Assembly: GCA_051362555.1 (NCBI GenBank)
Contig: CM120640.1
Span: 70,472,788-70,536,787 of the forward strand
Length of the DNA stretch: 64,000 nucleotides
Direction of reading: 5' to 3'
Origin: Lingula anatina
Lineage: Eukaryota; Animalia; Brachiopoda
The position numbers were made by a program, and so were the translations under genes. Of the stretch, positions 26,571-57,365 are shown piece after piece; within the stretch, counting starts at the first letter, position 1, and each line of letters begins with the position of its first letter. The notes beneath the pieces were generated by a model, which did not search any database, was not told the origin of the DNA, and saw only the letters and a program-made list of their open reading frames with translations.

Positions 26571-26646
26571 CATAGCCACGCACATACGCAATTTTTCTGT
26601 CAGGACGAATTGAGACCATCAAGTTTTATCCACTGAAAGCGTTAAA

Positions 26647-29600
26647 ATGCCGTTTTTAGGAAAAGACTGGAGATCTCCAGGAGAACAGTGGGTACGAACA
26701 GACAAAGGATGGGAAAGAATGAGAATGTGGAGGCTGAAATTGCTTGAAAATCTAAACGAAAATGTCGTTGCGAGGTAGGGGCCCTTTGTTTTTCAGTACA
26801 CACATCTTTTTCTCTTGTAACAGAGTTTGGTCATATGATTTGCTGCTTCGTATTTTTCTTAAAATCCTGTAACATATGGCAGGAGCAGTGGCGCCTAACT
26901 TTTAATTGGAGGGAGAGCCTGGAAACGGGAACTGAAAGTCGATTTTTTCACAAGGTAAATCTCTGATTGTGAACCTGTGGTAGGTTTATTTCTTGTATCT
27001 CTGTGACTGTGACAGTGTTGAAGCTAATTCACCAGTACTGCACCGGGCACTCCTGCCAACGTGTTTTTACGTTATTTGAAGAAAGATCTAAAAACTATGG
27101 GATTACTTTTACTGTTGGTATCTCAGTGTATTTTGGTACAGAGAAAATGGAATGTTGCCATTTAGATAGATAAATAAATAAATTAAACATATTGTATTGA
27201 TTGGTTGGGGTAGACCTAGGTGCGATAGCTTAGTGACAGAGCACTCACATGGTAAGTAAGCCAGTGCTCAGGTACAAACCCGGTCGAGTTAGGTGTTTTC
27301 CCCAAAAAGATTTCAATATAACATGATATTTTGTATCTCTGTACATTTAGACATGACACTAAATTCAGCAACATCTAGCATCTCACATGACTTATTTTCT
27401 GAGCACGTGTTAAGTGTAAAAGTGTTGATATATGCAACTTGTATTTAAACTGATGTCAGGAACACAAGTTTTTCAGTGAATGTGTGGATACGGTTTTGTG
27501 ATGTGAGATCAATAATGTCTCATGTGGTCTAGATTTAGAAAAGTGACATTTCACAAGTCTGCATTGTACAAACATGGTAAAGGCCAAGTTTTGCTCTTGC
27601 AGGCTTGCTGTCTTGCAATGTCAGCATTGTTGCAAAAGGGGAAACCACAGGAAGATAAAAAAAAATATTGTATTATCTAAATATGTCAAATGTTATGGAT
27701 AACAGTCAAAATGCCAGGACACCTGCAGCTAAAATCTTACTTATATTTTTGCTGATTCTTACATTATTTGTAGAAAAGTGGATGAATGGTATATGATATA
27801 TGTTTTTCATGTACTGAGTTATCAGATAGATCTCCACACTAGAAGGTTCCAAACTGGGTCAGTCCACAAAAAAGTGAAGTAACATTAACATGTAAATCAC
27901 ATAAAAATAACTCCATGTGTCTTATTTCTATTAATGACTCAAATGCACTTGAGTGAAACAGTAACACATGGAATTGCAACTTCTGTTTTCAAGTCCCTGA
28001 ATTCTGTTTTCAGAATCATCAAGCTTGCATTGGAAGACATGGAATCCAGGCACAGTGCATTGGTGACACACAGTCAGCCCCACATTTATGTGGCTAAAAC
28101 TGTGTCCAGAGAGGTGAGTCTTAGGCTTGATGTGGCTAAAACTGTGTCCAGAGAGGTGAGTCTTAGACTTGATGTGGCTAAAACTGTGTCCAGAGAGGTG
28201 AGTCTTAGACTTGATGTGGCTAAAACTGTGTCCAGAGAGGTGAGTCTTAGGCTTGATGTGGCTAAAACTGTGTCCAGAGAGGTGAGTCTTAGGCTTGATG
28301 TGGCTAAAACTGTGTCCAGAGAGGTGAGTCTTAGGCTTGATGTGGCTAAAACTGTGTCCAGAGAGGTGAGTCTTAGGCTTGATGTGGCTAAAACTGTGTC
28401 CAGAGAGGTGAGTCTTAGACTTGATGTGGCTAGAAATGTAACAAAATTATGTGACACCTTTTGTCGGGAGTCGTGTATCTGACAGTTGGTACATGGATTG
28501 TTATTTTTAGAAGAAATTATGGTTTATTTGCTCATAAAATATGACTAGATGTCTGGATGGAGCTTTCTACTAATAAATTCAAGAGATTGACTAGATCCCC
28601 AATGTGTTTATAATGAAATTTAATTTAATTTATTTATTTTATTGTTCAAAATTAAGCTTATAGTGAGAAGAAAATATGATTTCCAAAGTAAGCAAAAACT
28701 GTGTCTTTGTTGGCATAAAACAACTTTACTCTTTTGAATCATCACATTTAAAGACAGTTCATGTCAGTTTTGTCTAGTTTTCACTTTGTCAGTGCCAGGT
28801 GCAGAAGCTATGAATCTTTTATTTTACTCATCTTAGGATGCATTCACACTAGTTTTAATTTTAAAAAATTGACTTACATTCAAGTATCAGATCCCCGCCC
28901 CACCCTGCTCTGTGACCTTGCTAACACCTGAGTGTGCTGATCAATGAACTCACGGATTGGGGGTGGTGGTGGTGGGGGGGGGGGGGGGGGGGAAGGTTAG
29001 GATCTCCCTGTAGAAATTAAGACTAAATCCCTGTTGGTTTAAAACCAGTCTCAACTAGGGTTTGCTGCACTGCAGTAACACAAAGGCACAGTGCCAATAA
29101 GTTAGGGAATATAAACCTTAGCAATTCATTACCTGGTACAAAGGAACTCGAGTATCAGGAGTTAAGTCAACTAAGTTATATTATAAACATGCCTCTCTAC
29201 CTGACTGTACTCAGTGTATGGGCCAGTTTCCAGGATAATTTAGACACAGGAATCAGGGATTGTGGTGGTTACTACTAATGTTACAAACAAGAAAAACATA
29301 ATATTAGTTAGAAAATACACAGTTTTTTTTATTTTAGTCAAGTCCTCATTAATTTAGTTTTCAGTGTTGTGTCCACATCTTATATGACATAATATGTCCC
29401 TGACTGCGGCACCTGTAGCCAGGGTATATAGATAACATATTGAATAACCAACCTGTCACTTCCTGGATGGCATTCTTAGAGAATAAACTAGTTCAGTACT
29501 TCCAAACTGCGTAGATGATTTGGCAGGACAAGAATGCCTTTGTCTTGTGTCTTGGCGTGTTGCCACATTCCCAGGTATACAGTTGTGATGTATCTAAATG

Positions 29601-31474
29601 AGCAGCAGTATCCTTAAAAACCAGCTGTTTCTTGTATCTTCTTTTCACTTTATTTTATTTAGTTTTTTGACACTTTATTTTTTCGATGTAATTTATTGAG
29701 GTAGATCTAGAGAGATCCTTCAGGCTGCTGAAGGATCAGACTTAATAGCAAATGATGCATTGGTTAAGTATACATGTACCTTTAAGTTGATAGCCACCTG
29801 AGAAGATTCTGCAGTCATCACTACAAATATTTCTTAGTGTTCATACAATTTGGATTTAGGATTTAGTAAGGCAATAAAAAAAGGGTAAACATCCCTCAGA
29901 ATCTTGGAAATGCTACTTGTCCAGTAATGGTCTTAATTGGCTGAAGTAACACTGTGTATTGGCCTAAATGTTTATTGTGAGGAGAAGTAGCAGGTTTTAG
30001 CTGACTCATTCCTGGTGAACAGGTATCCCTGTAGATCTCTACAGTAGTCTACAGGTGGAGGTAGTCTGGATTACCCTTTGCTTACTGACTAATTGAGCTG
30101 ACTTACATATCATTATAGATGACTTGAAATAAGGGACCAACAACAAATGCTGTCTAAATTATTATTATTTTTGTAATAATTATTTTTTATTCCTTTTTAG
30201 CATCAGATGCAGATTTCATTAGGTGATGTCCTGACCAAACTTGACTTTGCTGGTGCAGCCAAAAATATCCGTAGATTTAACTATGTTTGCAAGGTAAAAA
30301 GAATGCTACCTGTCTGTTATATATATATATATATATAATTTTATTATACATAAACTCAATAATTGGAATTCGTGGAAACAGAATAAAAAACTTATTTGTT
30401 ACAGTAACTTTAAAATACTTTCAAAAATGCAAAGCAGTGTGGGTAATAACTTTACATGAAGCTTATAAATATTTCAAATAAATTAGAATGTAACATACTT
30501 CCAGAAGTTGAAATATTTGAATGTTGTAACAATTTACTCACACAAGATGTCAACTATTTCTTCACAGCTCTTGGATGTTTTGATCAATGAAAAGTTGCAG
30601 TATCTTGGAGGACAAGCCCAGAAACAGGTCTTCAGCATTCTGGAAGCAGCAACAAACTATGGTCAGTTACATGTGCTTCTTTGATTTCTACTAACAGCCA
30701 GAAATTTTAATGGGGGGTACTTTTTCTGAAAGAACGGACCTTTTGTACCCTCTTAGTTGGCCCTACTTGCTTCAGAACAGAGCTTTCCTGGCCAAAAAGC
30801 AGATATTTTCTCAACATATTCCATGTGGGAGTTTAAATTTTTGACTTTTAGCGGATCATAAGTTTAAAATATATTTAAAGAGTGCATATAGATGACCTAA
30901 AGAAAAACATTATTGCCCCATTTTTGTTGTAGTGGTGACAGCAAAGACTAATACTCAGCTGCTTAAACAACTCCTGGTGAGCGCCCGCCAGGTTCTCATT
31001 GCCGAGGAAAGATACCACTTGGGAAGTCCAACTCTGTGGCAGAATCACATGGAGACAGTTAACAGGGCGAAGAGTCAACTGGCAACTGTGTTAGAACCTG
31101 TACATGTAAGGCAGTTGTACAGTTTTTATTGTTATAATATTAATGCTGAAATTTTACGAGACCAAATGTAAAGCTTTTTTTTTCTTGGAAATAAATATGA
31201 GAGTATGTTTGCTTCAACTCATTGAATATTTTTTTTTTAAAAAGAGAATTTTGTCTTTAGAAATGAATTCTTATTCTACTGAGAATAGGCAGCAGACATT
31301 TCATCATCATCATCATTTAGAGCCTATAGTGTTCCACTGTTGGACAAAGGCCTCAGCATGCTTTTTCCATTGTTTCCTATCCAGAGCTTCAGATTTCCAG
31401 TTTGGCCAAGGTTTCTTCTTCCAAGACTTCCAGTAGTCATCTAATTCATCCTTCCATCAGACATTTAGTGCAAG

Positions 31475-31512
<38 letters not shown>

Positions 31513-32828
31513 GGGGGGGGGCAGAGGGGTATAACAGTATATGTTGTCTTTAAGTTATTGAAATATTTTGTTTAAAAAATGACAATATTGTTTCCTATTC
31601 ACTTGAGAACAGACAGCGGATATTTTGTTTCAGGAGGCAGAAGAAGGCAGCAGAACCCTGGCAGATCTTCCCAATGAGTGTCTGTGGAAGATCCTGGGCA
31701 TGTTGTCAGATCACCTAGACATTGTTAGCACAGGACTGACCAAGAAGAGATTGTACGAGATATCTGCCGAGGAGCTGTTGTGGAGAGAGCTGTGTCTGTA
31801 CCACTTCACTTATGACCAGGTCAACAACCTGCTGGTCAGTGGCCAGAGGAGGAACAACCTGGACTGGAACTGGAAGAAACTGTACCTCAGGCTGGTCAAG
31901 TGAGATTGATACCTACATAGATATATTATTATTATATTATAATTACATTAATTATTCCAGAAATGTTATCATAGACTGCTGTGCATTTTACACATTGAGC
32001 ACAGCATTTTATGGCCATGATAATTTATTTTATGGTTTTGAACATTTTTGTGTTCAAGTTGAAGGATGCACCAACAAAAGGATTTTAAATGTTTTGGCCA
32101 TTGCCCAAAGGCAGTACAGGATAATTGACTTATGACCTTTTATCAAATAGGCTCTTCACTTTCACCTGTGTGTGTTTGAACTTGAAATATGAGGTGTTAT
32201 TGATGAGAACCAAACAGCTTTTTTACCACCTTTTCTACAGTATATTCTGACAGCACAGCAGGTTACAAACACTTAGAAATGAAGTTCCTGTCCAATTTTT
32301 CATCTTCACAATAATTTATCATCTGTAAAGCTGCTGTTATGGCTCTCAGCACTCAAGTCACAGCTGTTGAATGGACCACAGGCAACAGGTTCACGCATGT
32401 ATTTATCATTTCAGACGGCACGGCAAAAAGGAAGTTTATGCAGACATGTTACACCTGTGCGACAACTGCAACTGCGTTTTCTGGAAGGTAAGCAGTTAAA
32501 AAATTTCAAGGAAATGTATTTGTTTTGACCTTTGGAAAAAACTTTTAAAATCTTCCAATATACCTTGATATGTACCTTTTATGATATGACAACTCAGGTT
32601 GGTAATTTATTAAGATAATCTCAAGGATTCACTCTCTTCGCATATTTTCCTTCAAAATGTTTCACTAGTATGTAGTTGACACATTTCCCCTGATTTTACC
32701 CAATCAATTTTTGACAAAATACTGTCGTCTGCTTTCAGGGTCTTGGCCATCCATGTTTATCAAAAGATGGCTGCCACTCGTCTACTGAAGTCTCGCCACA
32801 TAAATTCCTGCAGATTTTTAACCCTTAG
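26647..32828 (+). CDS. FBXO32: F-box only protein 25/32 (atrogin-1/MAFbx family), 8 coding exons
   Basis: Exons 26647-26774 ([24 protein letters not shown]), 28014-28113, 30201-30293 ([18 protein letters not shown]), 30568-30661, 30933-31105, 31634-31899 (F-box [14 protein letters not shown]...[11 protein letters not shown]), 32415-32487 ([17 protein letters not shown]), 32739-32828 (GHPC...[10 protein letters not shown]). All phase-compatible. Probably co-orthologous to vertebrate FBXO25 and FBXO32. Confidence 0.95.
27221..27292 (+). mobile_element. Degenerate tRNA-derived SINE head
   Basis: A-box-like tagcttagtg and B-box-like ggtacaaaccc at tRNA-like spacing; no clean cloverleaf. Confidence 0.35.
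28088..28432 (+). repeat. 42-bp minisatellite x8 spanning the F-box exon 2 / intron 2 junction
   Basis: Unit atgtggctaaaactgtgtccagagag|gtgagtcttagRcttg. GT donors at 28114, 28156, 28198, 28240, 28282, 28324, 28366 and 28408. Confidence 0.97.
31302..31457 (-). mobile_element. 5'-truncated RTE-clade LINE fragment with TSD
   Basis: Minus strand reads [47 protein letters not shown] followed by a (TGA)n tail, the typical RTE ORF end. 9-bp TSD cagacattt at 31293-31301 and 31458-31466. Confidence 0.85.
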
Positions 32829-33700
32829 AAACTTGTTATATGTGAAGTTTTATAAGTTCACATGCAGTGTAAGCAAACCAGATGGGTAAAAAATAATCTT
32901 TGCAGTTTTATGAAGGATGTACAAATTTTCTCAGAAAAGAGAAAAGAAACTGCCGTGTGACAAGAGAAAACAACCTATTCTAGCTTCCAGATTCTTTGTT
33001 CAAAAATTGAAAGATTAGAACCACAAGATGACTGGCTTCCTCAACCTGTCTGTGGTTTATTTATAACTTGTTATAAATTCTCAAGGATGAAAAATCTCAT
33101 AATATTGCCAGATAAACCCTGAAGTTGTCAATGCTTTAAACGCAGCTCTGCAGGGGGCCCAGATTGATGGTTACATGACCACAGATGTTGGGATGTTGTC
33201 TGGTGTCAAGATGCAAGGAATGTACAGTGGATGTTGTGTACACAGTTTTGAAGACATTTGAACCTTGCAAACCACTTTTGAAATGCACATATTGTCATTT
33301 AAAAGAATACTTATTTCTTTCTGTAGTGCACTAGCTGCATTCCATTGGATACTCATATCACTCATAGCAAAATATTCAGTTCAGCAAGTTTGTTACCTTG
33401 ACAATGTATATTTTGACTGAAATCTTATTGATAGATGCCATTTTGTATTTAAAAGGTAAATGTGTGTTGTGATAAAGCTGTTTGGCAAAGGGTGTTGTGC
33501 TATTTGTTTGTACAGTGTAGTTATATCAAAGGATGTAAATCTCATTCAATACTTGGAAAAAGCTTTTGTGGTGCTAAAACATTATGTAAAAACTACTTTC
33601 TTGAATGTACTACATATTTAGTTATATCTCTCTCAACTTATTAAGATTTTGAATGAAGTGCTGTATAATCCAACCCACCAGAATGAGTTGTGCCAAAGTT

Positions 33701-33733
<33 letters not shown>

Positions 33734-35599
33734 TTTTTGTGATGTGTTGGAAATCTTGAAAGTTAATGTGAATTAGTTTTCACATGTTAGTCTAATAAGG
33801 ACAGATTGACAATTGAAGACTAACAACTTTTATATTCACTAGTTTATATTCAGAGGCCAGGGTTCTCCAGTAGATTGGTTTTGATTGCAGCCTGGACTTG
33901 ACTTAACCATATTTATTAATCACTGTCCAATTGTAGTCTTTGGTTCATTGTTTAAAACCATCTCTCACCTTAGTTTATGGGTTTCTCCCAAAGTTTTTCT
34001 AGTTTTTTCTAGTGGTCCCCAGTGGCAGTACTGTTTCAATACCAAAAAATCTGTATGTCAAGGATGTAATTTGGTGTTATGGTGGATAATGGAGTCGTTT
34101 CAGTTTCTGTATATAATATTGAATACAAACTTCGCTTTCTTTCAAGCAGATCACTGGATATTTATTTGTTGGATGCATCAGTATTATACACCATCTTGTT
34201 GCACAATTTCTTTTACTGCAAGTTTTATATTTATTTTACAAACAATTATATTGCTGTGGTGCTGTGTGGAGGTTAAGATTGAGATTGGTGTTGTGAAAAA
34301 TGATACAGTAGATTGTTTTATTATTTTTTCTATAAATTATATCATATCTTTATTATGTCACATGTAAAAAATATGTATAGCCATCAAAAATGCATGCTGA
34401 AATGCAAACCCTACATTGGTCAACATCATGGCCATTCAGAATAGATGATCTGAGTACTAACTGACCCCCGGGGAGACCATCATGGAATTACCAGCATTTG
34501 CTTTTGAAGTGGGGTCGGCCATATTCTGTCAGTGTATCAGTTAGTACTGGGATTATCTAGTCTGAATGGTCCCATTATTTGACTTTTATGCAGTTAATTA
34601 TAATAAAAAATATATACTACTTATGCAAAAGATAAAGAGCATCGGAAATCTTCCCAAAATATTTCTCAGTATATTCTATATTCTTGTATACATGTTTAAA
34701 ATAAATTGTATACACAATATGTATATTTACATATAAAATGGGTCCATGGTTTAAGATTGATTTTGTGATGTCCAGTTGACAATTTGATACGGGATGGTGA
34801 AAACCATGGACAATATTTATATATGCTGTTATAATTCCAGTTCAGAAAAATGAAGCCCATAATATGAAGCAGAATATATAGTTTCTTTATTAACACAAAG
34901 TGTGTCACAGCTCAAAGCGAAGTTTTTTTCTTCCATATTCAAATGTGTCAAGGCAACATCAATCATTGCTTCATAGGTTTACATCAGTTTTAAAAGGTCT
35001 AAGATTAGGTGGGCAAAATTGTTAATGATAAAATTCCAGACAGATGCAAAGAATTGAGTATATTACTTAGGTTTATTCCATTCACATATAAATATATAAA
35101 TATATAATAAGGTTCAATAAATAATAAAGATGTTCTAAACGCATTCAGTGTCATGTCATTTTTTTACCCACAAAAATGAGCACAACCCAATCGATTGAAA
35201 TTGTAAGTGATCAAAATGATCCGATTTTTTCTTCGAACTAAACTAATGAACTAGAGAAACATCTATTTTCTTACAACTGAACTATTGAAACATTACTGAG
35301 ACATCAATATTGGCACTTGTATCATTGTATTACCAGTTGCACAAAACTTAACTCATAAAATCAATTAGCGTCTCCTTAGTAATTTTTGACAAAACATCCC
35401 AGTAATGCACAAACATGCTGTGGTAGAATTCCTGGTTTTCAATACAATCACAAGCCAGGCTGTCTCAACTGGCACAATGAATACTACTTTAATACTTCCA
35501 GTGGTGACTGAGATAATTTCTACCCCCTCCTGCTACAGGTCTTCCCTTATAAATAAGTTGCCTCTAGCCTACATTCATTCCACCCACATGTCCCTATCA

Positions 35600-35788
35600 A
35601 CCCTGTGCCACACTGAGCTTACAACCACCCCCTGAGGTATCCTGAGTAACCTACCACACCCTGGGTATCCAAACCTTACCTCTGTGCCACAATGGGCTAA
35701 CAACCACCCCCCGAGGTATCCTGAGTAACCTACCACACCCTGGTAAAAAATCTTACCCCTGTGCCACACAGGGTTTGCAACCACACCA
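35600..35788. repeat. ~79-bp tandem repeat (about 2.4 copies) between the convergent 3' ends of the F-box gene and TRIT1
   Basis: ctgtgccaca at ~35603, ~35682 and ~35759; gaggtatcctgagtaacctaccacaccctgg occurs twice. Confidence 0.85.
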
Positions 35789-36733
35789 GTTCTTTTCTTA
35801 GACATTTTTCCTGTAAAGCACTGAAAAGAGGTGCTCATGCCATATTTTATAAATCTTACACAGTCATATTTTATTAATTAATGATCTTCTCTTTAAAGTG
35901 GGGTTATCCCTTTGACCAAAGTGTCACCAGAACAGCTGTGGACCATTCTGTCACCACTTTTCCTGACCCCAGTTTCTAACCCCACTCTCTGGGGTCTCCT
36001 GTTATTAGGATGGTTACAAGCTGTCATCTGCCCTCAGTGTGGCCATGGAAACTTTTCCCTGTCAGCAGAGGTCACCAGCGCTGAGATAAGGCTCCAGAGA
36101 CTGCCATGTGGCTGAAAGCTCCTTTCTCCTGGGTCTAGTGTCAGATCTAAAATGTTATAAACAAATTTGTGACCTGCATGTAGCAATAATAGCATTTTGC
36201 AACACATATGAAATGATGTTATATAAAGCAAAACTTTTTAAAAAATTTTATCAACATAATAAAGAGACACAAAATCCAATTTCAGCTATAGAAAATAATT
36301 ACGATTAATTTTGAATTCTGTCCTCAAATTACCGTCCCTCAGCATTCATAAATATTTGAGATGAGCAGCTGCAATGTTCATAAACATATAAGCTATTTAT
36401 GGCAATCAAGATTCTTAAAGTAGATTTCTGGAGACAAGCATGTACTTTGATGTGAATCATAAAACCCATATCCAGTTTTAGAAAACTGTTAACATCTTTC
36501 AATATCATATCACATTTTCGGTCAACTTCTGCCTGATAAATGTGCTCTAATATTCAAATGTACTAAAACATGCAGGGCTGGTCATGCCTAAGTCAACTTA
36601 TACTAAACATAATCATAGTTTATGTTACACAATAAAATCTTACCTAACAAAGATGTTCTGCTCCAGTTGGTCTCTCTGACATGACGCATTCCAAATCGTC
36701 ATCAATATCTCCTTCCTCCAAACTGCCTCTATT

Positions 36734-37140
36734 TCAGGTACTGAAATTATCCAGAGTACACCAATCATGACAACTAATCGGCTACCAACCCAAAATTAAA
36801 CTGATTATGATCATAAATATGAAAGTTCTTACAAATTTTAAATGTACTCATTGTTTACATTCATTTTATTAACCCACCTAGCACTGTCGTCTGCCACTGC
36901 CCCAATAGGACCACCTGCTGCTTCTGTGTGCTTTTTCTTCTCATAGGACTGCATTAGCTGAAGGAGTTCCCTTTGTCGTTTCCTCTTTTTGTATACTCTT
37001 TTTAGGTGCTTTCTGCTTTTAAGGTGACCTGAAGTAAATAATTTTAAACTTGATTATGATTTTTTTGTATAAATATATATATAGTTTTTTTTCCTATTCA
37101 TGACAAAGTAATCATTTTATTCATTTCAAAGTCAAAATTT

Positions 37141-37201
<61 letters not shown>

Positions 37202-40200
37202 AGGCATTTGGGACTGAACAATCTAAATTACTCAAATGTAATTTAAACAAACATAAACTGTGTTTGAACAAGCTTTTAAGGCTTGCTCTATCAACTTACA
37301 TCCAATCCCATCAATCATGTTCTTGGTCAATCAATTTATCAGCCACAGATATAAATCAATCATTCAAATTTATCAATCAGGCAATTTACAGCTACAAATA
37401 GAACTTATTCTGCTAATCTTGTTTTTACTCAACAAGCTGATGAACAGCAATCTATGGTACTGTAATGAGTAACATGGGAAGTAATGGCGTACAGAGGGCC
37501 TCCGTCCTCATTTTGTATCTAATTCAATGTTTTCACTCTGGCAGACGCCTCATGTTAATCTGTCTGTACTAGCAAGTGGACCTAATTAAATTCTCGCCAC
37601 TAACAAGGTAATCCACGGCAACCTGGGGCGGACAAACACATGTCTGGAGTTAACTATCTTGTCCCAACACATCAATGGCTCATCCTCCCTCATCAGAAAT
37701 GCTAAATGTGCACCAGAATAAACACCACTTTGTTACCAGCCAGGGTCGCAGACGGGGCATACAGACCAAGATGGTGACATAACTAACCACAGCATAAAAA
37801 CTGAACAAGCTACCTGCAGCAATTTACACAATGTCATTATACAGGCATGAGACTAGGTTTCAAAAAAACCCTCTAAACATTTATTATGGGACCCAGCATC
37901 TAACCTTGATGAATCTCAGGAACCATCCAAATTGAATTGAAAAACGCGAAATTCCACTTTTCTGCAGAAAAAGCTCATGTCTGATTATACCTTCCCAATT
38001 GCTCTGTGTTAGCAGAAGCTGTCCGTCACAAATGTCACAGATCTTGTGGACGACGGGATTTGACTGCTTCACCTCCTTCTGGGCTGGAGAAATGAGCGGC
38101 ACGTCACCCTGGAAAAAAAAATAAAAAAAATAATAAATAATCATATACATGCAACAGTAAACAGTGTTACTATCTAATGGAAATTTGTACAGCAAGGTTA
38201 GTAAACTCAGTGTTGGGTAATATTAATGAAAAATTTTCATTGTGAGAACATTGATACTAAAATATCCTTAAAATGTTTTTTTATTAACAGGCCATTTTTA
38301 ACTCTAACCATTATCCAACACTGAAACCCTAATTATGCTTAAGACAAACTAATACCTGTGACTCCTGCAATTCAAGCTTATGGATAGGGCAGATTATCTC
38401 AAAATATATTTTTATAATTTAAATATAACATTTACTATCTAACTCCATACTTTCATGATAGTCTCCAGTATATGGCAGGCAGGTTCCAGTACAGCATAGT
38501 CCCACTCTTCTGGCTTAGTGGCATCCACTGTATACACTGCTGGAACATCCTGACCTGGCCCTGAAAACACCAGCTTCACTTAGACAGGCCTTTCAGAATA
38601 AGAAGATCCCAGGACCTTCTGATCCATGGATCAAATATGGCGCTCAATACATGAAAAAAGAGCCGACTAATACGCTGATGATCTCCCTGCCTCCACACAC
38701 GCCGTCCTTGCAGGCATCTAGGAGTTAAACTTTGGAGCCATGATTTAATCCGTTTAATGGTGCCTGTGGAGGCAGAGAGACCATCAGCAGATAAGTCGCT
38801 TTTCTTTCATATAGGGTCTGCCATATTAGATCCTAGGATCTTCTGTTCTGAATTAAATGGGCTCATAGAGACAGTTCACATGGGCATTGACTCCTGTACT
38901 TCAATAACATGTAAATTACTGTAACTGTGGTAAATTGAATGTTAATTTTTATATTACGCCTTCAAAATATCGTGAAATACTCCTAGGAAAAATTACAACC
39001 CAAGTATGATCTACATCAAATTTTCGAAAAATTATATTTTTGTTATTTTTCAAAAACACTATTTAAACACTACTTATCTCTTCAGAATATGGAATTAGGT
39101 GCATTTTTTATGCTCTCTGTATGAATCATTAAACTGCTATTCACAGCTGTTCAAATCTTAAAGTTTTACTTTCAGTGATTCATTTGTTGTCATTTTATGG
39201 ACATGTAAGGAATTTTTAGAATAAAAAATTACATCAAGCTATAACCTAACCTTCTCCTACTAAAAAAGTCTTTTCCTCCATATTTTCCTTTGTATCAAAA
39301 TTTGAAATATAGAAATATAGATCTAATACAACTAGGATCCCTGGAGGAGCAGGATAAAAAAAAGAAACTCTTCTTTTTTTTCTGCTATGATCTGAGTATC
39401 TGGCAGTTCCAGCATATTATCATCTGTACCAACTTCCAGATGGGAATAGAAAGAATCCCCCTTTGTGTCCATACTCTCTGTTTAAACCAACAAATAACTT
39501 AGACCATTTATTTTTCATGTTTGGCTTATCTCTGCACCATTTCAGTTTTGCTGCCAACTTTTCCCTCGATGTCATCTGTTCCGCGGATTAAAGGTGACAA
39601 TACAATAGGATGTGGAGGAATCATGAAAAGCAAAATTCTAAACAAACAACATCTGATGAACAAACAGCATGACTTCATGCCCTCGGAGAAAAAAATAAGA
39701 TGACATTGTTTTCTTGCTTATGCTTGTATTTCTCAGCTATCAGTAAACACAGAAGTGTTACAACACACATAGTTGCAATAAAGAGGGACCCCAATGTCCC
39801 TATAAATAGATAAGCTCTCTTTTTCAGGCCATGAAATTTGAATCTTACGGAGAACAAAGAGCCCAACAAACCAGTTGTTACATTCAGTACTGGTAACCAG
39901 AGCCGTAATAACTGCTCTCAACGCTGGTAAGGGAAATGGGAAGACTTACTTCTTAAAAGCCGGTTTTTGATCCAAGTAATCTGTCTCCTGGCATACCTTC
40001 TTGTCACGAGCTTCAGCGCATCAATACCTGAAATTGTATTAAAATTATCTTCATACACAAATACATGACTTAGATGATTTATTTACCACAATATATGCAC
40101 AGAAAAACTGAATTTATAAGTTTAATGTGACAATAATTCAATCAACAGTCAAGATTTTTTCAAAGAACAGATCCCTTCTCTATAGTTGTTAACATTCATG

Positions 40201-43200
40201 TCCTATTTGGATTATTTTTCCTACAAGTTGTCACATCCCATTCTATTCTCTACAATTTTTCCTACATAGTTCGGTGGGAGTGCATCTTCATTACCCTATA
40301 GTTGTCACTTCCACTGAACTCCTACCCTCTTTCAGACAGTTTTCCTGTTCAAAAAACAGCTAATTTTCCCCAATCCCCCCCCCAATTCCAATGCTGCTTA
40401 TTCTCCATCATTTCTACAGTGTCCATGGATTCCACCTCCCAGAGAGTAGCATTCAAGTCATCAGGTATGTATTCACAGACTTAAAAAGAATGCCTGACAT
40501 TTGTTCTGTTTGTCCTTGCTGTGCTGGTTATGTCAGTAATGTAGTTATGATGATGGTTATAAAGCCAGATCTGCACCCTGTGTTAAACCTGTCATATCAG
40601 GGTGTCAACTGTTCATTATGATCTCCCGGGGAGAAGTAACATGACTATGGTTTTAATACGGTTGCCTTAGTGCATGTGTCCTAACTGAGTACAGGATGAG
40701 ACTACCCTTTAGTGAAAAAATTGGAAAATATGGCATGGGGTCCAGGGGTTCACCTAGGCCATTGGTATTTTTGGCTCCCAAAAGTCGGAAATCCGCCAAT
40801 TATCGAAAAAATCTCATCCCTGTGAATAACATTTAATAAAATTATTATCTTGTTTTGAATATTTGATTTTTTTTCATAGAAGATTTCCATCAGCTGTGCT
40901 ATGATGCAAGAAAAAAAAGCAATAATTTTTCTTCAATCATCAGGTTATATTAATATTAAAAATGTTGTACACACTAAGGAAGATGATGTTGACAGACATC
41001 CAGAATACTGAAGATAATTTTATTTTACTGCAATACATAATATAATTAACATTTAGGAAAAACTAATGGAAAGTGACCTATAATGCCCAATAAAAAAAAA
41101 AAAAGATATCAGCATAACCTTGGAACATGACACTTTTTCATAATAACACAATCGTAACATGCTATATTCAATACCTAAAATTACTAGCAGTGCCCTCAAT
41201 TTCATGCATTCTACAGGCAATATGCTTTTAGGTAAACCTCACATATTTGGACATCTTAGGAGGCATGATGCAATTACTCATATTCCTGATGACAACAAAT
41301 ATGTCTATCTGCCACCCGTTCCCCATACACTATACTTCACCAGATGACTACGTGACCTTATACTTCATGTAGTCGTCTCCTCTACGCTGGAAAACTAATG
41401 CTTAGCTTCTTATTACTCTTACTCCATATCAAGTAACACTGCACAGCCATTTTTTTTTCATTACAAAAGACATAATCCCTAATAAGGACTTGGGGAGCAC
41501 AATTCTGGCTATGGTCTCCAGTGGAAAACAAAGAGAATTTGTTGTAATATGTCTTGTGATGAGGGGACCAGCTGGAGTCCAACCATATGTCACGAGCGAG
41601 CAAGTCGGGGGAGGTTACAAAACACACCGCCATCACAAAACCACACAAAAACATACACACTTCAAACTCAGCACCGCGTCCTACCAATAAATCCAAGATT
41701 AAACACGACAAAGCTTTCTGGGGAGATATCAAATGGTAATGGCTTTTTCAGCTATTCCATAAAAGGTCATACAAAGTCTGTTGTTTCTCGTGATTAAAGT
41801 TCAAGGATCAAATTTATTATTTATTGATAGAACTTTATGTATTCCTAAATATTATATATATATGTACCTCATTCTATCACCAGCTGCTTCATAAGCTACA
41901 GAAGAAAACATCAATATCAGCTAATATACATATAATTTCACAAAATGCTTTGTCTGAGTATGCAGCGAAAATCTGACACTTTTTTTTTACATGGACCCGT
42001 GACCTAAAATATTTAAAGAACTTTGTTCATGTTAATATAAAAACAAACCAGCCACTTCCTGCAAATCTGACATATCTTGACATTGATGATTTCCCCCAAA
42101 AAGTGCTTCCAATTACTAACTTTTATTCAGCAATATTCTTAGAACAGGGGGTGACAATAATCTTGGAGTGAGAAGGGAGGGGGCCGGGGGAGGGGAGGGG
42201 TTATTAATGCCCACTTTTTTAACCCCCAAGACACTGCCATTTCTCAACAACCCCAGTACAGCTCTATGCCCAGCTTTACACTACTCTACAGTCCCAGATG
42301 ATGTCCACCTCAAAGGGTCAAAAGGTCAAAAAAAGTGACCAAGTCATTGACAGTATCAGTACCTCACACTGGATCAACTACTTCAGCTTATCTATTAGAG
42401 CTTTTGAAGGAATTCAATACCTGATACCCAGCCATTTTACTGAAGGATTTACCCTTTTCATTTCCTGTCCAATTTGAAAAGAAGAAACTGTAAAACAGGT
42501 CAAATTACTGCCACTGACCAACATAATGACCACTGGCTGCAGTGAGTAATGACCTTCAAGAATTGAAAGAATTTGGGTTACTTGTGTCATTGCCCCCTAT
42601 GATTGGGCCTCCTTACATGCTAGAGCATGGGCTCTCCAGAACAGAGGTTAAAAATATACTTCCTCAAACGTGCCTCAGCATTTTGTCTTTGAAATTAAAC
42701 TAAGACAATAACCTTTCTAGAGATTTTGTAACACTTTGTAAAATGTAGCAGTGCATTTTCAGCAACAAAGACATGAGCTTGGTGTTTGTAGGTTTTCTTG
42801 GAAAAATGAGGGGTTTGGCTCAGAGAAGAGTTTCATTTTTTCAGTATTTAAGAACAGAAGTCAGAGGCTGGTAGAATTCCTGGCTTGGGTTTAAACTGGC
42901 AGAACTAGAACTGTTGCAGAATATTTATGTTGTAGCAACAGCCGGAACTTAACTCTTGCACCTAGGCTTTTGAGTGTATGGGAGAGATGGATACAATGGC
43001 ACTTCTGTGGTAGTTTCAATCAAGATTTAGTAGTTAAAAGATTACTCTCTTGCCATCCCAGATTACACACGTTATGTGTGTTTAAGTTGAGCTTTTGTTG
43101 ATATTGGTCAAAGTTTACCTGGGTTGCGTCACTGTGTCCACCTCACTCCCAGTCACTGTGAGCCAGTTCCCATGGGACTGTGTTGGTCATTCAAACACTA

Positions 43201-46200
43201 AGTAACAATATAAGTTATTCAACCCACATACTTATCTCCAAGGACAAGAATCTAAAGCTTAGATCACTTCCCAGTGAGGCTGCCAGCCAAGAGGGTCAAC
43301 GACTTTTCAATAGGTGATTATTCAACACAGCAAGCACAGAGAAGGGGGTGCAGCGGTTTAGTGATAGAGGATAATATGTGTGGGTGATTGGGGTGGGATT
43401 AAATAATAATTAAAATAATTAAAATATCAATAAACTTTTAAAGTTTGCTTTGAATCACAGCAATTTAAATATTGCAGCAATAAATAGTTTCATTTTCTTG
43501 ACCCAGGAAGTATACCTTCTTTCAAAAGTGTTTCTCCCATTTGACTTTGTCGTTCTTGTTCAGGCAGGATCAAATAGTTATGAAATTCTTTGAATCCAAT
43601 ACTTTGAAAGATGCCATGTGTGTAGTCTGCTTCCCTGAAAAACAAAAAGTAAACTAGCAAACAAACCACTCTTTTATGTTTATAGTTTATTTTTTCATGG
43701 TTTATTTCTTTCAATAAAAAAGAATTCTTTGCAGTTCTCTAACATAAAAAAATTGCACCCAACCTGGCCTGTGGGTAGGCAAGTTATACAACATGTAATT
43801 AGGAGCTTATAGCAATGGATTACTTGCATAACAACTTTAGATGTTAGAACCTGTGGGCTTAAGGAACTGAACTTGGGAGTGAACAAACTAGGTACACAGA
43901 CTATAGCCACCTTCAAATTGTCTACAAAGAAAACAAGCATGATGCATGCTAAAGCAGACTAATCCCTGCCTGACCCGGGTGATTGATAAAATTCTTATCA
44001 GAGACCCTATACAGTACCCAGAGAGATCAAAAGAGAATACTTCACCCTAACCAAAATAAAGCCCAATATTCTCACTTGTGGCTAATAATAATATTGACTT
44101 ACAATCACAAGGTAATGTAGGGTTGCCACAGGCTCAACAACTCAGTTTGTACAAATATTGGAAAATGAAGTTGCACTTGGTGGAATTTCAGAACATGAGC
44201 AAGGATAGAGAGCCAGACGGACTACGAGATGTTAATCAAAATATCAATGACTGGACATCATATACACTGTATGATGCAAACGCTCAGCAAGGAGGCAGCG
44301 TTGCAACTTGTGCTAACTGTCAAATTACAGCACCTGCTGGGAAGGTTTAAAAAACATATTTGAAATATTTGAAGCATTCAAAACTCCTCAGGGAAAACCT
44401 CCCAATTTAATTTTCACTTTCTTTCCTTTTCCTTTTTTTTTTTAATTTGTGTTTCAACATGATCGCATTTTTACTTTCACTACTTTAACATACACACAAT
44501 ACACCCCCATAATATCACAAAAAAATAATAAAAAATTGCCCCACTTCCTTATTGCAACTTTCAATTTATCCTATAGTATAATCCTTCTTGTTGCTTCCTT
44601 CATATTTACTTCTGTGTCCAAAATCCAGATAAGTTTCCCTTTCACTACCAGAATTGCATAAATATGTTTCTACTTAAAGTTTATTTTCACTCAGTGCTCC
44701 AAATATTCATAACTTTTGAATCAGAAAAATCATATTGTGTTGACTTCTTATAATATGTCTAGAAAATCAATACTGTAACCTAAAGTATTCAAGTTGCAAA
44801 AATTAAGAATTAAGCAGAAAAGACTCAGAATATCAGTCTATGTGTGATCTTACTTGTGTTCCTCCAATCTCTGCTGGTTGTAGCGGCTGTGAAAGTCCAA
44901 CAGTTCCGCCACCAACCCCCTCTCTAACATGGAGTCCACACGCTTGTCAAGACGCTCATCAAGCACTGTAAAGACATAATATTACACTTTATCTAATACT
45001 GCAGAACTCTTACCGAGGAGAACCTTATCATTATTATTATTATTATTATTCTGCCATAGAGTCATATCTGATGTTGTTTTAACCACACAGTAATATGAGA
45101 GCTACATATGGTCCGTCTTCTGACACTGTACCCAGAATATAACCCACCTGTCTGCTGACACTGCACCTAGAATATAACCCACCTGTCTGCTGACACTGCA
45201 CTTAAAATATAACCCACCTGTCTGCTGACACTGCACCTAGAATATAACCCACCTGTCTGCTGACACTGCACCTAGAATATAACCCACCTGTCTGCTGACA
45301 CTGCGCCCAGAATATAACCCACCTGTCTGCTGACACTGTACCCAGAATATAACCCACCTGTCTGCTGACACTGTACCCAGAATATAACCCAAATGTCTGC
45401 TGACACTGTACCCAGAATATAACCCACCTGTCTGCTGACATTGAACCCAGAAGATACAGTTGTGCTGATATCTCAGAGGGCCACTAACATCCTCGTCCTC
45501 TTGATGCTGTTCTGCCAAGATCTCACTCATGGTCACACCATACTGGAAATGCACCTCCAGACCTCTACAGAATAAGGGGGGATATATCTAAACTAAAATG
45601 TGGTGACATTGGGCTTATTTACTTCGATTGTTCTAACTAGTCAACAGTACCCCCTTCCTGAAAATAAATTTAACTTATCTATGCTTTATATCAGAAACTA
45701 CATTCCTGCCATAAATGTTCTCATTCTATTTTTGTTTCATGTTACATTACTTAGTATATTTTCATATCTTAAATAGGACAACCCTTCAGTGGGTAGGAGG
45801 CTATGTATTTCTTGATATTTTGACTTCTTCTTTGCTAAGTGCAGTTACAATTTGCCTCCTAAATCCAGTTTTAGTTATGAGATTATTCAACAGGTGGCAG
45901 CACAAATAGGGCATTCTTATTATAATAACCCTGATTACACTATCATCAACTCAACAGACACCATCCATTAATCATCACTTTAAAACAATTGAAACTGAGC
46001 CTGATTATCAGTTACTGGGCCATCTCCAATAACATCAACAAAACAAAGTTTACAATGTTGATCAACTTGTCCAAAGAGATAATGTTTGGCAACACTAAGT
46101 CTGCTTTCAGGAAGACAAGGATATCTTTTGATAATTTAATGTTGACAAGGTGACTATTTCAATAAAACCCATCAAAGAAAAGTTCAAATTAAATTTCAAC

Positions 46201-47092
46201 GGTATCGTATTTTAATGTCTCACACTTGAACTTTCCCTCTTTATCACTAACTCTGCTGTAACAATTCCATTCATAACCCCACACATCAGTCTGTGTAAGC
46301 TGACATGACCCGTGGCCCATTGATAACTATATGTAAACCCCACATATCACCACTGTGTTAACAACCCAGTATCAAGGTGTCCTAGATCTTCAGCCAAAAT
46401 ATTCATTCTTGGAAGTCAAAGAGTTATCAAGTTCACTGCTCCATTTTTACTATCTTAGATGCCATTCTATTGGACACCATCTGACTATTTGGATAGATCC
46501 ATGTCTGCAGGGACTCTCGCTGAATGCAATCAGAATACAGAAAAGTTGGTGATTATGAGTACGTTGGAAATGAAGTGGTGTGTCATTTGGTTAAGTTGAT
46601 TGCACTCAGCTAGAGTCCTCACAGAGTAGGATCAATCTACAAAGACCCATGGTGTCTATGGGAATTGGACCCAAAAGGTGATCATAAACATCTAACTGCA
46701 AATTTTATGATATTTCCTTTGCAAACAGAGTAGTGTTTCACACAGTGTTTGTGGGCAAGCATTGGCACCTTCCTCTTACCTTATAACTACAGAACATGGG
46801 ATTCTATCTGTGTTCAGGTTAGCAGATTTTCACCTTTAACTTTTCAGACACTTAACACTTTGATTTTGTGTTTCTTTTCAAAATACAAAGTGTCACATAT
46901 AATCACCTACCTTATAATCTTTCTTTTGTTGTTGGGGTGTAAGGTCTTGGCATAGCTGGGATCCACCGACATAAGTTTGGCATATAGCTCTCTACTGTCT
47001 AAATCATCAAAATTCTCTCTTAGTTCCAGCAACTCATCACTTGATGTCACCACTGCAGCTTCTTCCCCTTTTTCATCTGATGATACACATTT
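36734..47092 (-). CDS. TRIT1: tRNA dimethylallyltransferase (isopentenyltransferase), central and C-terminal exons; 5' exons not found in the window
   Basis: Exons 47092-46911 ([19 protein letters not shown]), 45564-45428, 44965-44854 ([17 protein letters not shown]), 43634-43516 ([11 protein letters not shown]), 40027-39950 ([17 protein letters not shown]), 38560-38451, 38108-37991 and 37028-36878 (zinc finger CDICD...[10 protein letters not shown]). All phase-compatible. The terminal exon and stop (36740-36734) are uncertain. Confidence 0.93.
37150..37200. repeat. Poly(A) tract of about 50 nt in a TRIT1 intron
   Basis: Direct reading. Long poly-T runs also occur at ~31478-31507 and ~33702-33732. 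Confidence 0.9.
38587..38862. mobile_element. Palindromic MITE-like element in a TRIT1 intron
   Basis: ttcagaataagaagatccca.ga pairs with tcctaggatcttctgttctgaa, and inner gctgatgatctccctgcctccaca pairs with tgtggaggcagagagaccatcagc. Confidence 0.7.
45115..45454 (-). repeat. 35-bp minisatellite x9 spanning a TRIT1 exon/intron junction
   Basis: Minus-strand unit ttctgggtacagtgtcagcagacag|gtgggttata. Junction copies at 45427, 45392 (GT destroyed), 45357, 45322, 45287, 45252, 45217, 45182 and 45147. Confidence 0.97.
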
Positions 47093-50000
47093 CTGCAACA
47101 TACAAAATGATAGAAGGGTCAAAATAGATCATTTCAGCAAAGAGCAACAGGATAATAAAGTAGATAATTTAATAATAAGTAAACAATTTTATATTAAGTA
47201 AAGGAAAGAAAAGACACCAAATACTACTTAGGAATACTTCATAATCAAAACGACATCTGTTACCATTTCAAAATTAATTATTCTGCATTTATATCAAAAT
47301 CCATGCATTTTACACAGTTACAGAATTCAAGAGGTTGATCAACAGGTTTATTTTAGAACAAGACACTCACAGATATGCATCTTAAATGAGAATAACACAA
47401 GATTCTTCTTCATAACTCAATGCTAGTATAAAGAGCACCATTTAAAAGAATGCCAAAACACTCATAAAGTTAACCAGGCGTCACCTTTCCCACGACAGCA
47501 TATTTATTTATACAACTCTGCAATAATTTTATGAGCCAGTGTACTTGATAAAAATGTGGTCTCTTCCTTGAGGCAGTTTGCCTGTGTTGACACTTGTGCT
47601 TTAATGCACCCTCAGAAAACCATGTTTATTCATCACACAGTGGCCTAACATCCACTCCCTAAGTTATCACATACTCTCTCTGACACTTTAAATGACAGAG
47701 CAAGGACTGAACAATGTCTGGAGTGACAAGGAGACAGAAGGTGTCAGTTCAGAGGTGGTAACCTGTGCTCACAGCCAGACATTTCTTCATGATCACTATC
47801 TCTGTCACAGCTCATAATGGAGGAATTTAATGACTTGCTGATGATTTAATAATTCAAACAAGGTTCCAGTCACTTAATTATGCAGCAACATACATTGCCA
47901 TATGTTGCTGTCTGAAAAAAGTAGATGCAAATGTCTTTTTGCTGGTACTCATGTACCAATGTCAACTCCAACTAATGGGTATTTCCACCTCTGTTATCTT
48001 TGTGCTGGCTTTGGGGGGGGGGGGGGGGGGGCACTGCTTCATTGTAGGCCTATCAATATACCCGATCAGTGATCCCAAAGCGTTACCAAATCAACAGATA
48101 AAACACTTAGTTAAGAAAAGCATTCTATGAACCATTACCCCCTTCACCCCTCATTAAATCTCCACATTATTGAACTGCTAATTGTACTTTGCTATAAGTA
48201 CTCCATTTTCTGTCTTTGCTTGGTGGTCATATTGGACAAAGGCTGATAGGAAAAAAACCCTGCCCAGACCAGAAACCATCTCAAATTGCCTGCTGATGGC
48301 CAGGTGAAAACCAGGTACACAGAGAGACCCGGTCACATCATTGTCCTCCTGACAAGATAATTTAACTGGCCCAGTCACTTAAGTTAAAGATCTCCTATAA
48401 ACTTTAGTGCAATGAAGCCAGGACCCCAGGGAGAGAGACTTCATACTGGAACCCTGCAGGCAATACACGGGCATTTCTCCACTGAATGTCTTCTCAGGAG
48501 ATAAAAGGATCACTCAAGTATTAAAACACCCTTTCATTTTATTTTCTTTCTTGGTGAAAGGAAAGGGCATAAATAATCGTTGCCCTTCAAATTATCTTCC
48601 GACTTCTGGACACATTGGTCTCAATACTGTGTTCTTCAAGGAGACAAAAAGCACCATAAAACTTACAATTTACAAATCATACATAACAAAGGAATATGTT
48701 TTTATTGCTTGCACTTCCTGTACTTAAGGATTTTTTGTGTATCAAAAAAAAAAAAAAAAAAGGCATTCATGATTACATAAGTCCTTTTTGTAGATATTAA
48801 CTTAACTTTAGTGTTTCTCAATGAAAACAGTAACATTTAAAACATTAATTTAAAATAAATAATCATGTTCTACCTTCACTCTTAAATCAACAATCACTTG
48901 CCTGACATAGTACCCCAATCTATAAAAGCAAACAAGTTTTAAACTAACATCATCCCTCTCTCCTGCAGACCTCATCCAGGTAGGTTTATCCTCCGTACCT
49001 AGTGCCCTCCGTAACTCTAAATAATCTCAGGTAACATAAGGACAACAACCCCACCTCCTCAGGTCATATTTCCACAGTACCGCCGTGCCTGATACACAGA
49101 TCTTAATCAATACTTCAATTGATCACACCCCAAAAAATCCAAATAAACCCCGATTGCTTTCTCCCAATTGCACATGAACATGACAGCAACTCGTTACCAG
49201 ACGCTTGCAACTATTAAAATTATCTAATCATGAAACCAATCAACATTCTGTGTACTAAAACTACCTTAGTGTGAGCAGACAAAGATCTTTTAAACCAGGT
49301 GCACTGTGATAATAAATAACTGCAGAGTCATCAAACTCTCCATCCAAAAAGTACTTGGCGTGTTGTCAAAAGTTAAAGCTGGTACTTTGACATGCTCTTT
49401 GATATTAACCAATTTGTGTCATCTACCAGTGACCATGCATGTACACATTTTTTTCAAAAAAAAAAAAAAAAAAAAAAAAGAGAGCAGGATTATTAAACTT
49501 ATACAAGCCTCATGTTATACTTTCACAACATGCAATCTTCACATTTTAACAACTCATAAATTTGTCATACAAGCTTCACACACTGGCAGGATGGCTGTAA
49601 ATTTTTTTGTGTCAACCCACAATATGTTTTATCTTTAAACTTAAACTGAAAACTGCTGATTATAAACATGTTGCTTCCAGGCAATGTACATGAAGGCTCT
49701 CCCTTTCACCTGAGCCTAATGTGTCTTTAGAACCATAATTTTGATATAAAAGCAATAATAAGAATCTTCAAGTTCTGACCACCCATGTCTGATATCACAG
49801 ATAGATACAAGTCCAAAATGAAGATGCTGAGAAGTAAGGTGAAACACAGGGTCACAAGCAAAGTTTGAACAGGCATGCAAACACAAACTATAAAAAACAG
49901 GTTACAATAATTTATAAAAAAAGGGGGTTGCAAGATTATACATAAGCTTCATGCCTTCTTTTTCTCTCTTTTTCTTTTAAATACTAGAAAAGCAGTCAAG

Positions 50001-53000
50001 CTGAACTATTTTACGACCTGCTGCGTGTCCACATCACTTTGTGTTCAGGAGCCAATATCTCTATCATAATCTCATACAGGCTATGGTTACATAATTGAAT
50101 AAATGAAGAGAAAGGTTAATGACCGCTACACCACGTTGAACACCATGTGATTTTTAAATTCCATATTTCTATAATCCAGTCAACCAGGATGACTGGACCT
50201 ACATGATTCCACATATAAACCAGATTTCTAAACACATAGAGCCCCAAGAAGACTTTTTTCCCCACTTGCTGAGCACATTTTAACTTAACCAATTGTTTTC
50301 AATTTTTACCTCAATTAATATTTAACACAAGGTAAAATTTCACTTCCCAGGGTTAATAAAAGAGGATAAGGGTGGGGGTGGGGGGGGGGGGGGGGGGTGA
50401 GGGGCATTCAGCCAGTCTACATTAATCTTTGTTAACACCACTATCAATCATGACTGCAAGTTCCGCAATCAAACTGCACCTAATCTGTAGTTTGAAAGCC
50501 AGTAGCGGCTGATTATTTGAAGTTTACAGGAAATCCAATGAAATGGACCTGTCAAATTTTATCAGGACATGAACTGGGGAAGGGTTCCAGTCATACTCAA
50601 AGGGACTCACGGAGAGCAAATTGAGACTTTATTTTCCTAAACCTAGGTTGGCTCACAAGCCCTAGCTTTGTTGTGTGTAATCTTTATCAACAGCATACCG
50701 CTGTAACCTATCAAGTTTTATCAGAGATTTGACAATTTCCTTTCGGAGGATACAGTTATCACTTTGTCTTCCCCTCCCATGTTAGCAGCCCTTTTCCTAC
50801 TACCATGTCACTGAAGTCAGTTGGTGAATGAATTTCCTTTCATTAAAAGGTGCAGCGTAGTGAATGAATATGACCTAACATAGTATAAGCCAACGATAAT
50901 ACATGTGCCCTAATGTCACCCTTTCGCTGCAGGCATTGTGCAAGAAAATCAAGCGGTAATGTATGGACAACACGCCCATACAATGATGTATTCTTTTCTC
51001 TGCTTGTTTCAAATGGCGGCAATATATTTACTAGCACTGAAAGACACTTCAACAGCCACAGGATAAACAGATAAATGAAATGATACCCGTAAGAAAATAT
51101 TAGTTTGATAAAATTTCAGTGCAGTAACAGATTACATGTAAAGTGCACTGGCTATTGAAGGCCAGTGAATGAAGCTAATTTTAATATTCAGAAAGTTAGT
51201 ACATATGAATTAATGCACCATGGGGAATAAGTGGGCACATTCTTTAGGCTGACCTAGGACAACATTTGGGATGTCAACAGGTTAAACCATCCCCGGGAAA
51301 GAATATTTTTATAGGGTGAAGCCGTCTAGCCTATCACGGGCAGCCAATTCAGGCCACATGTAACAAACCTACACATATTTCCCCTCATTGAAAATCTGTC
51401 TCTCATTTCTATTGTCAATATCCCAGTATTTATCAAATAAACTGCACTGGCAGATCTTAGGTGTGTGCTGAGATTACTGAGCATTGTTTCCCATCTGTAA
51501 CTGCACCAAGCAGCCAGTCAGGCAATCAGACGCCATGACGTAAACCTGTTTAACGCAAACTTGTTCAACAAGGTGTAATAAGTAACTGTGTGGTTAATAA
51601 GCTCAGGCTTTCATCCCAGCCTTCATGTAAAGTTACAATTTACTGTACAACAAACAGCTCAAGGAATCAAAAAGCAGCAACAACTTTTGACGTGTGAATC
51701 CATTATTCCAGTAACGGCAGGGGAGCACAATAAAGTCCCCTACTCTATTAACTAGCGTAATTGCCCTCTATTGCCTCATGCACAGAGCGGGTGGGCTCAA
51801 GGCCTTATTGAATATTGACTATTTATTTTATAAATCCTAAATAAACAATGGGAATGGCCGTTGATAAGTTGGAAGCATTTAACTGTAATAATGTTTTCCT
51901 GCTTTTATGCCTGCCTCCGCAGTGAAGTTGCTGGGGACAGTTTCTATCTTCAACCTCATACCAGGTCAACCTCACTCCCTTCTGTCCCTCAATTACCCCC
52001 CCCCCCCCCCCCCCCCGGCCGCCTTCCCTCATTTCACAGCCTAAGAAACATATTAGAGAGATTGATATTTGTCAGCATTTTCCTGTTTCTTTGTCTCCTG
52101 TGACCTGTTGTACAAAGTTACAAGAAGCACATTCTTTTCTAACCACAAGTCTTTATTAAGTCCAAGGTGTGGGAGATGCAATACACAATGCCTGAGAAAC
52201 TAAAACCCTGGTAAAGGAAGTGGTGACGTACCTTAGATTAATAGAGCTCTTAAATGTCACCAAGATAATAGAAAACATTATATGTAAATGTCAGCAAGAA
52301 TGCAAGAACAGTTATCCAGAAATGAAGTCTTCAACTTATTTCAGCCACATCTACCTCAGCTATGACAATTGACAGCACATCCACGTCTTAAGGCACAAAA
52401 ATTAACTGGGGTATGAAACATTTTTACATTTTATCATAAAATGAAAACTTATATGTGTTTCTGCTCTGCTTAAACTCCTGCTAAATAAGATGTATGCACA
52501 CTGCTCTCAAAAGTTTTAAAAAAAAAATCTAGTTTAATACACTAAGTTAGGAATAAATAATGTAACACTGATGAAACCAAGGGGCTCCACACAGAATCAC
52601 TGGTGCTTTCTTCTATGTACTCTAGCTAGCTCTTTCAATTCAAATAAAACATCCTGATTCTCTACGAGTATGAATGTACCTTTTTCTTATTATAACAAGC
52701 GTCAGATATTGTCACTAGATACCAAACCAGTTAGTGGTAAGAGGCAGGAAGGAGAGAAGGAGAGAGGGTGGAGATCAGGGCATTGACATGAAAGTGTGTC
52801 AAATTAACTTGTGCTCAATATTCTGGCACAGGAATGAAGGAATTTCTTCACTGAAGAGAGTTATCTGGACACCATCGCACACTGGTGGTTAAATAACAAA
52901 ATTTGGAATTTTTTTTTATTGATGTATGTACACCTTCACAAAATAGGTACAACTAACAAACATGGACATAGACAGCTAATAACACTGTACACAAATGTAT

Positions 53001-57301: not shown

Positions 57302-57365
57302 CTCTTATGTTGCAGATAGGTTTACTGGTCAATGGCCATTCAGGTCAAGACACCATTCAGACACT

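Follow-up and report, generated by a model that had tools for sequence, protein, structure and literature searches.

Two minisatellites across splice donors of FBXO25 and TRIT1 in the brachiopod Lingula anatina

Results

Two minisatellites begin across genuine splice donors

The DNA analysed is a stretch of 64,000 nucleotides from the brachiopod Lingula anatina (assembly GCA_051362555.1, contig CM120640.1, positions 70,472,788 to 70,536,787), hereafter the window, in which the genes FBXO25 and TRIT1 each carry a minisatellite lying across a 5' splice site (donor). The exon queries matched the Lingula F-box only protein 25 (database protein P0003) and tRNA dimethylallyltransferase (P0004 and P0005), and exon ends were set by tblastn of these database proteins together with splice joints in RNA. 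Among 57 rows returned by Tandem Repeats Finder (TRF), arrays 1 and 2 (Table 1) were the most homogeneous multi-copy arrays with a period of 20-80. The claim of the first-pass annotation, made from the sequence alone, that the two most homogeneous minisatellites straddle real 5' splice sites was thus borne out by TRF, by the tblastn exon ends and by the RNA joints.

Table 1. Positions in the window of the two arrays and of the genes that carry them.
Feature	Position	Strand	Evidence and remarks
Array 1, 42-bp minisatellite, 8.4 copies, 98% alike	28088..28439	+	TRF
Array 2, 35-bp minisatellite, 9.8 copies, 94% alike	45115..45456	-	TRF
FBXO25 (atrogin-like F-box) coding span	26647..32825	+	8 exons, 7 introns, every intron seen as an RNA joint
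FBXO25 coding exon 2, 100 nt	28014..28113	+	Protein match; RNA joints 26774-28014 and 28113-30201; donor is the first copy of array 1
FBXO25 intron 2, 2087 nt	28114..30200	+	Array 1 makes up the first 326 nt
TRIT1 (tRNA dimethylallyltransferase) coding exons within the window	36734..48975	-	Database proteins
TRIT1 coding exon, 137 nt	45428..45564	-	Protein match; RNA joint 45428-44965; donor is the first copy of array 2
TRIT1 intron, 462 nt	44966..45427	-	About 313 nt are array 2

In both arrays the genuine donor is repeated into the downstream intron and the terminal unit crosses the real exon-intron boundary. The unit of array 1 is made of the last 26 nt of FBXO25 exon 2 and the first 16 nt of intron 2 (donor GAG/GTGAGT), and that of array 2 of the last 25 nt of the TRIT1 exon and the first 10 nt of its intron (donor CAG/GTGGGT), a split of 29 exon and 6 intron nt fitting nearly equally well in the latter. 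Each unit is of local origin and is present in the window solely at its own locus. All eight donor positions of array 1 are intact and identical, with a donor score of 10.6 against a median of 8.6, whereas array 2 keeps eight of its nine, the second copy having been destroyed; the 8-9 copies of the first-pass annotation stand close to the numbers in Table 1, with the loss of this second donor as a correction. The terminal partial unit of array 1 is an exact 9-base match to the start of the unit in the exon.

Read-through of array 1 is in frame and free of stops, adding 14 amino acids per unit, and an open frame of 197 amino acids passes through it. In array 2, each later donor would give a frameshift or a stop, except for one that would add 35 in-frame residues. 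The copies of array 1 vary at one two-state site, and those of array 2 form inner and outer blocks of variants, with the changes concentrated in the inner copies and including ones that create stops or destroy a donor. In array 2, the sites at which the exon copy departs from the intron copies are synonymous, as read by eye. Changes of these kinds, clustered in the inner copies, are as expected for unselected repeats under turnover, and array 2, which is decaying, resembles repeat DNA free from selection next to an exon under constraint, its decay being neutral in appearance. In addition, the window exon and all eight copies encode Val at a residue of 28088-28113 that is Met in the database FBXO25 protein, a difference that is a possible marker for homogenisation of the exon copy with the array in other haplotypes.

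The first donor is the one used in the RNA

Reads from four RNA runs of three studies, out of nine runs on offer, were aligned to positions 26600-46590. They came from other individuals, which may or may not carry the arrays. The first-donor join of FBXO25 (28113-30201) was supported by 80 reads (6+1+45+28) and that of TRIT1 (45428-44965) by 25 reads (7+5+5+8), each in all four runs, and the same exons are joined in the database proteins. No join from a donor internal to either array was found among the 15 of 39 joints listed, the weakest of which had 19 reads, and no repeat unit was found within database proteins P0003-P0005. In X15, the deepest run, the bin covering exon 2 plus array 1 had a depth of 58 compared to 75 and 69 at the neighbouring exons, showing no excess. 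The absence of internal donor use among the joints listed tends to count against selection for arrays that bind U1, which had been raised in the first-pass annotation, and against current exon extension.

Placement of the arrays compared with chance

The window was chosen because of its donor-array pattern, and the in-window P values given here are not corrected for that choice. Placement was assessed on 24 mapped introns, seven of FBXO25 (all seven seen in RNA), ten of TRIT1 (four seen in RNA, the others from protein match and GT-AG ends), six of a gene that we take to be PPP1R8, for which Pfam named FHA only, and one of TMEM14, the introns of these last two genes being positioned by eye on translations. 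The count of 24 donors may be low, with further unmapped genes present, the genome mean being about 34 donors per 64 kb.

When the 24 donors and 24 acceptors were screened for any tandem self-match across the boundary, duplication was found at two donors and at no acceptor. None of the other 22 donors scored above 9 (background 95th percentile 10), so that faint, two-copy, younger or older duplications were not detected at them. Under random placement of arrays, the probability of at least two falling on donors was 0.001, 0.0016, 0.0105 or 0.036 when 5, 7, 14 or 24 arrays were considered, with 0.05-0.31 expected depending on the array class, and 0.004-0.12 when either kind of boundary was counted. 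Thus, an excess of donor arrays exists inside the window. Base composition was rejected as its source, as GC matching shifts the expectation only about 1.1-fold.

The Lingula genome has 425 Mb, 34,105 genes and 6.6 introns per gene according to PMC4595640. The null model gives this pattern in about 7-70 of some 6,640 Lingula windows, or in about 250 for the either-boundary class. The 95% interval for 2/24 is 1-27%, compared to about 0.2% under the null model, a figure void as a genome estimate because the window was selected. Within the window, placement of the arrays thus goes beyond uniform placement, as the first-pass annotation had proposed, but the excess is compatible with window selection, and two cases are too few to demonstrate enrichment when the window itself was selected.

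The likeness between the two arrays was weighed in the same way. Their geometry, 26+16 and 25+10 nt, is nearly the same as had been noticed, but this is weak and non-significant evidence, as the chance of exon parts agreeing within 1 nt is about 0.09 and within 3 nt 0.20. The units had also been called unrelated in sequence, which is nearly right except that the two donors are alike at 11 of the 13 positions from -7 to +6, the top of 276 pairs among the 24 donors for a span chosen after the match had been seen; wider spans rank 17, 12 and 2 of 276. Both donors have G at +3, as do 7 of the 24. No unusual hairpin was found in the units (z from -1.7 to +0.9), leaving a hairpin as the cause of the arrays unsupported, and for GC content and skew the two array-donor regions have values inside the range shown by the other 22.

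A 79-bp repeat in the TRIT1 3' untranslated region (UTR), with two to three copies at 35601-35768, was tried as a third donor array. Words resembling donors occur in it on the TRIT1 strand, and an acceptor-like site precedes them at about 35811. In bin 35271-35937, the RNA was as deep as in the neighbouring part of the 3' UTR in the two deepest runs (9.3 vs. 9.0 and 15.6 vs. 15.6) and less deep in runs X12 and X13, which suggests little splicing of the repeat, and no joint at it was found among those listed. Because of this equal depth and the lack of a joint, the repeat was not treated as a donor.

Other features of the window

Pfam named 5 of 45 chosen open frames, as pieces of F-box, IPPT, DUF2371, FHA and TMEM14. 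The DUF2371 (TMEM200-like) domain belongs to an intronless gene of 388 amino acids at 17754-18914 (- strand), the frame of which shows 100% identity with a database protein named Lingula anatina. The window differs from the database FBXO25 and TRIT1 proteins at several residues, and it is likely, from these comparisons, that it represents another haplotype or assembly of Lingula anatina than the database proteins do.

For TRIT1 in 47093-64000 (- strand), amino acids 1-121 of the long isoform are missing from the window, which implies an intron of more than 16 kb, and a shorter isoform has an alternative first exon at 48975-48874. An intron also seems to lie in the TRIT1 3' UTR (36147-36643, - strand; 2+2 reads shown), about 90 nt past the stop codon, where it could set off nonsense-mediated decay.

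Intron 2 of the PPP1R8-like gene (1120-7070, 5951 nt) holds a nested inverted-repeat element, with arms at about 3140-3818 and 6350-6693 and 21-bp subterminal repeats, inner arms at 4222-4394 and 5916-6010 and a perfect 30-bp hairpin at 5052-5116, and also a 281-bp satellite at 2180-3048. These structures look like foldback or miniature inverted-repeat transposable element (MITE) insertions. Arrays of a 16-bp unit at 56688-56812 and 57136-57294, in opposite orientations, resemble the subterminal repeats of a small inverted-repeat element. Dispersed short repeats at 34430-34525, 37860-37930, 38607-38705 and 46493-46557 collected many RNA reads, with loose ends and joints on the opposite strand, and one of them sits in the FBXO25 3' UTR.

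Discussion

The two Lingula arrays are real, and arrays of this kind have been described before in lancelet and human genes. In amphioxus, 'mirage' minisatellites have been described in Adh3, in the globins BflGb6 and BflGb9, in troponin C and in PGBD5 (PMC3087553 and PMC3902484). According to the former paper, mirages are spliced normally, their origin is unclear and intron gain from them is proposed, statements that the latter repeats. Among human genes, the minisatellite begins across a donor in F7, IFI6 (6-16), CBS, LMNB2 and PDGF (PMC1557585). In F7 intron 7, a 37-bp variable number tandem repeat reiterates the donor 5-9 times and the most upstream donor alone is used, an upstream-first rule demonstrated for this human gene (PMC1557585). 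As in both Lingula arrays, the first F7 unit lies across the exon-intron boundary; its length (37 bp) is near to theirs (35 and 42 bp) and its donor hexamer is that of TRIT1, whereas it is made of 4 exon and 33 intron nt instead of 25-26 and 10-16.

Four features of the mirage class are found in the Lingula arrays: a head-to-tail minisatellite (unit of about 10-160 bp), a terminal unit spanning the boundary, a reiterated splice signal and normal mRNA made from the authentic donor, the last as judged from 80 and 25 reads of four out of four runs in animals that may or may not carry the arrays. In anatomy and first-donor use, F7, LMNB2, PDGF and the amphioxus mirages are like the Lingula arrays, whereas IFI6 and CBS also use nearby copies, of which none was seen among the Lingula joints listed. 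Lingula differs from amphioxus in belonging to another phylum (Brachiopoda), and in having donors alone affected, while amphioxus mirages occur at both boundaries. Donor-spanning arrays were not found in the parts of PMC10078293, PMC12783039 and PMC2206037 consulted. Neither a genome-wide test of minisatellites on donors nor a report of donor arrays in Lingula was found in the literature searched, which covered few subscription journals.

The pattern having been published for amphioxus and human, and 22 of the 24 donors here being without any trace of duplication, the candidate genome-wide or new mechanism proposed in the first-pass annotation was not supported here. Its suggestion that such arrays are raw material for intron gain had already been put forward in print (PMC3087553). 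Boundary repeats in human genes alter splicing, and internal tandem repeats can supply new splice patterns by intron gain or exon elongation (PMC2812944), as could the Lingula arrays; here, however, no new intron or elongated exon was seen, both introns separating exons that are joined normally in the database proteins.

We think it probable that the two arrays are mirage-type minisatellites that arose as ordinary local duplications and are tolerated since the first donor wins. A piece of 35-42 bp across the exon end and the donor would have been duplicated in place, by slippage or microhomology repair, with array 1 possibly seeded by a short direct repeat, and unequal exchange would then have let the array grow and kept its copies alike. 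Its persistence would follow from splicing at the first donor, the copies likely leaving with the intron, if the upstream-first preference of human F7 holds in Lingula. A survival bias may add to this, as an array at a donor would be spliced out, whereas one at an acceptor or inside an exon would more often change the mRNA. Such a history does not require donor-targeting machinery, and a modest mutational bias at donors may exist beside it.

Several observations weigh against this interpretation. Tolerance accounts for donors over acceptors but not for donors over plain intron, and this remainder is either window selection or a real birth bias. Two of the five arrays with periods of 20-80 and at least 4 copies lie on donors, where 0.05 were expected (P=0.001), and GC matching raises the expectation merely from 0.0152 to 0.0171 and from 0.0126 to 0.0141. 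The 9-base seed of array 1 is unexceptional, the unamplified donors including one with 9 and one with 8 such bases, and it may be a decayed unit. As for the RNA, a minor donor with up to about 20 reads, around one-fifth of the FBXO25 joins, could escape 15 of 39 joints; the bin with exon 2 was somewhat deeper in run X18 (57 vs. 46 and 42 at its neighbours), and the reads are from other individuals, which may lack the arrays.

The remainder over plain intron would be explained if donors were true hot spots at which tandem duplications are born, in Lingula as in other marine invertebrates, with the copies tolerated afterwards, a reading that we regard as a serious candidate but on balance unlikely. 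The hot spot could be a lesion coupled to transcription or splicing, at a polymerase pause, an R-loop or the edge of a nucleosome where the exon ends, or it could be a slippage-prone G-rich donor. The in-window excess, with two donors and no acceptor affected, argues for it, as does the likeness of the two donors, both of the G-rich GTG type and the closest pair over 13 bases. Cores of classic minisatellites have been likened to donor sequences. The hexamer shared by TRIT1 and F7, as printed in PMC1557585, points the same way, and the amphioxus authors suspect a general phenomenon (PMC3087553). Against this, the window was selected, and the null model itself predicts about 7-70 like it; the remaining 22 donors hold no faint or two-copy cases; the published units of 10 to 160 bp, the 4 exon nt of F7 and the acceptor cases of amphioxus speak against a fixed footprint; and neither a hairpin nor GC content or skew sets the two donors apart. 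The narrower proposal that G-rich GTG-type donors especially are true birthplaces of minisatellites, with one to several percent of donors carrying arrays, seems to us rather doubtful.

It is improbable that selection maintains the arrays, whether to regulate splicing or to supply longer isoforms, even if FBXO25 could gain 14 residues from each unit of array 1 and TRIT1 donors that are out of frame could direct transcripts to decay. Array 1 does fit such a role, being in frame and stop-free with eight strong identical donors, and there are precedents in IFI6 and CBS, which employ one or two downstream copies (PMC1557585), and in human boundary repeats that can create alternative splicing (PMC2812944). 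However, internal donors were absent from the joints listed and units from the database proteins, array 2 has a period of 35 bp, shifts the frame at most donors and is decaying, and a period divisible by 3 is expected one-third of the time by chance. Inflation or creation of the arrays during assembly is more improbable still, because the copies differ in an ordered way, by the two-state site of array 1 and the blocks of array 2, and because fixed sites set the exon copy apart from every intron copy in array 2, which mis-assembly is unlikely to invent.

A donor-targeting mechanism may exist, but two cases do not demonstrate it. Taken as single cases, the arrays are of little importance; they add a brachiopod to the animals in which such arrays are known, and they caution annotators against in-frame false exon extensions such as the frame of 197 amino acids through array 1. 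The readings are far apart in what they predict for the genome, as there would be about 340-480 donor arrays (around 0.2% of donors) under the null model, at the array density of this window, and thousands if 2/24 were typical. If enrichment at donors were true genome-wide, transcription or splicing would be linked to the birthplaces of tandem duplications, and the old model in which introns are gained and exons extended through tandem duplication could be measured directly. If donors were indeed hot spots, the first-donor rule would conceal the arrays from selection, and Lingula would hold a large hidden reserve of surplus donors and of possible exon extensions that stay in frame.

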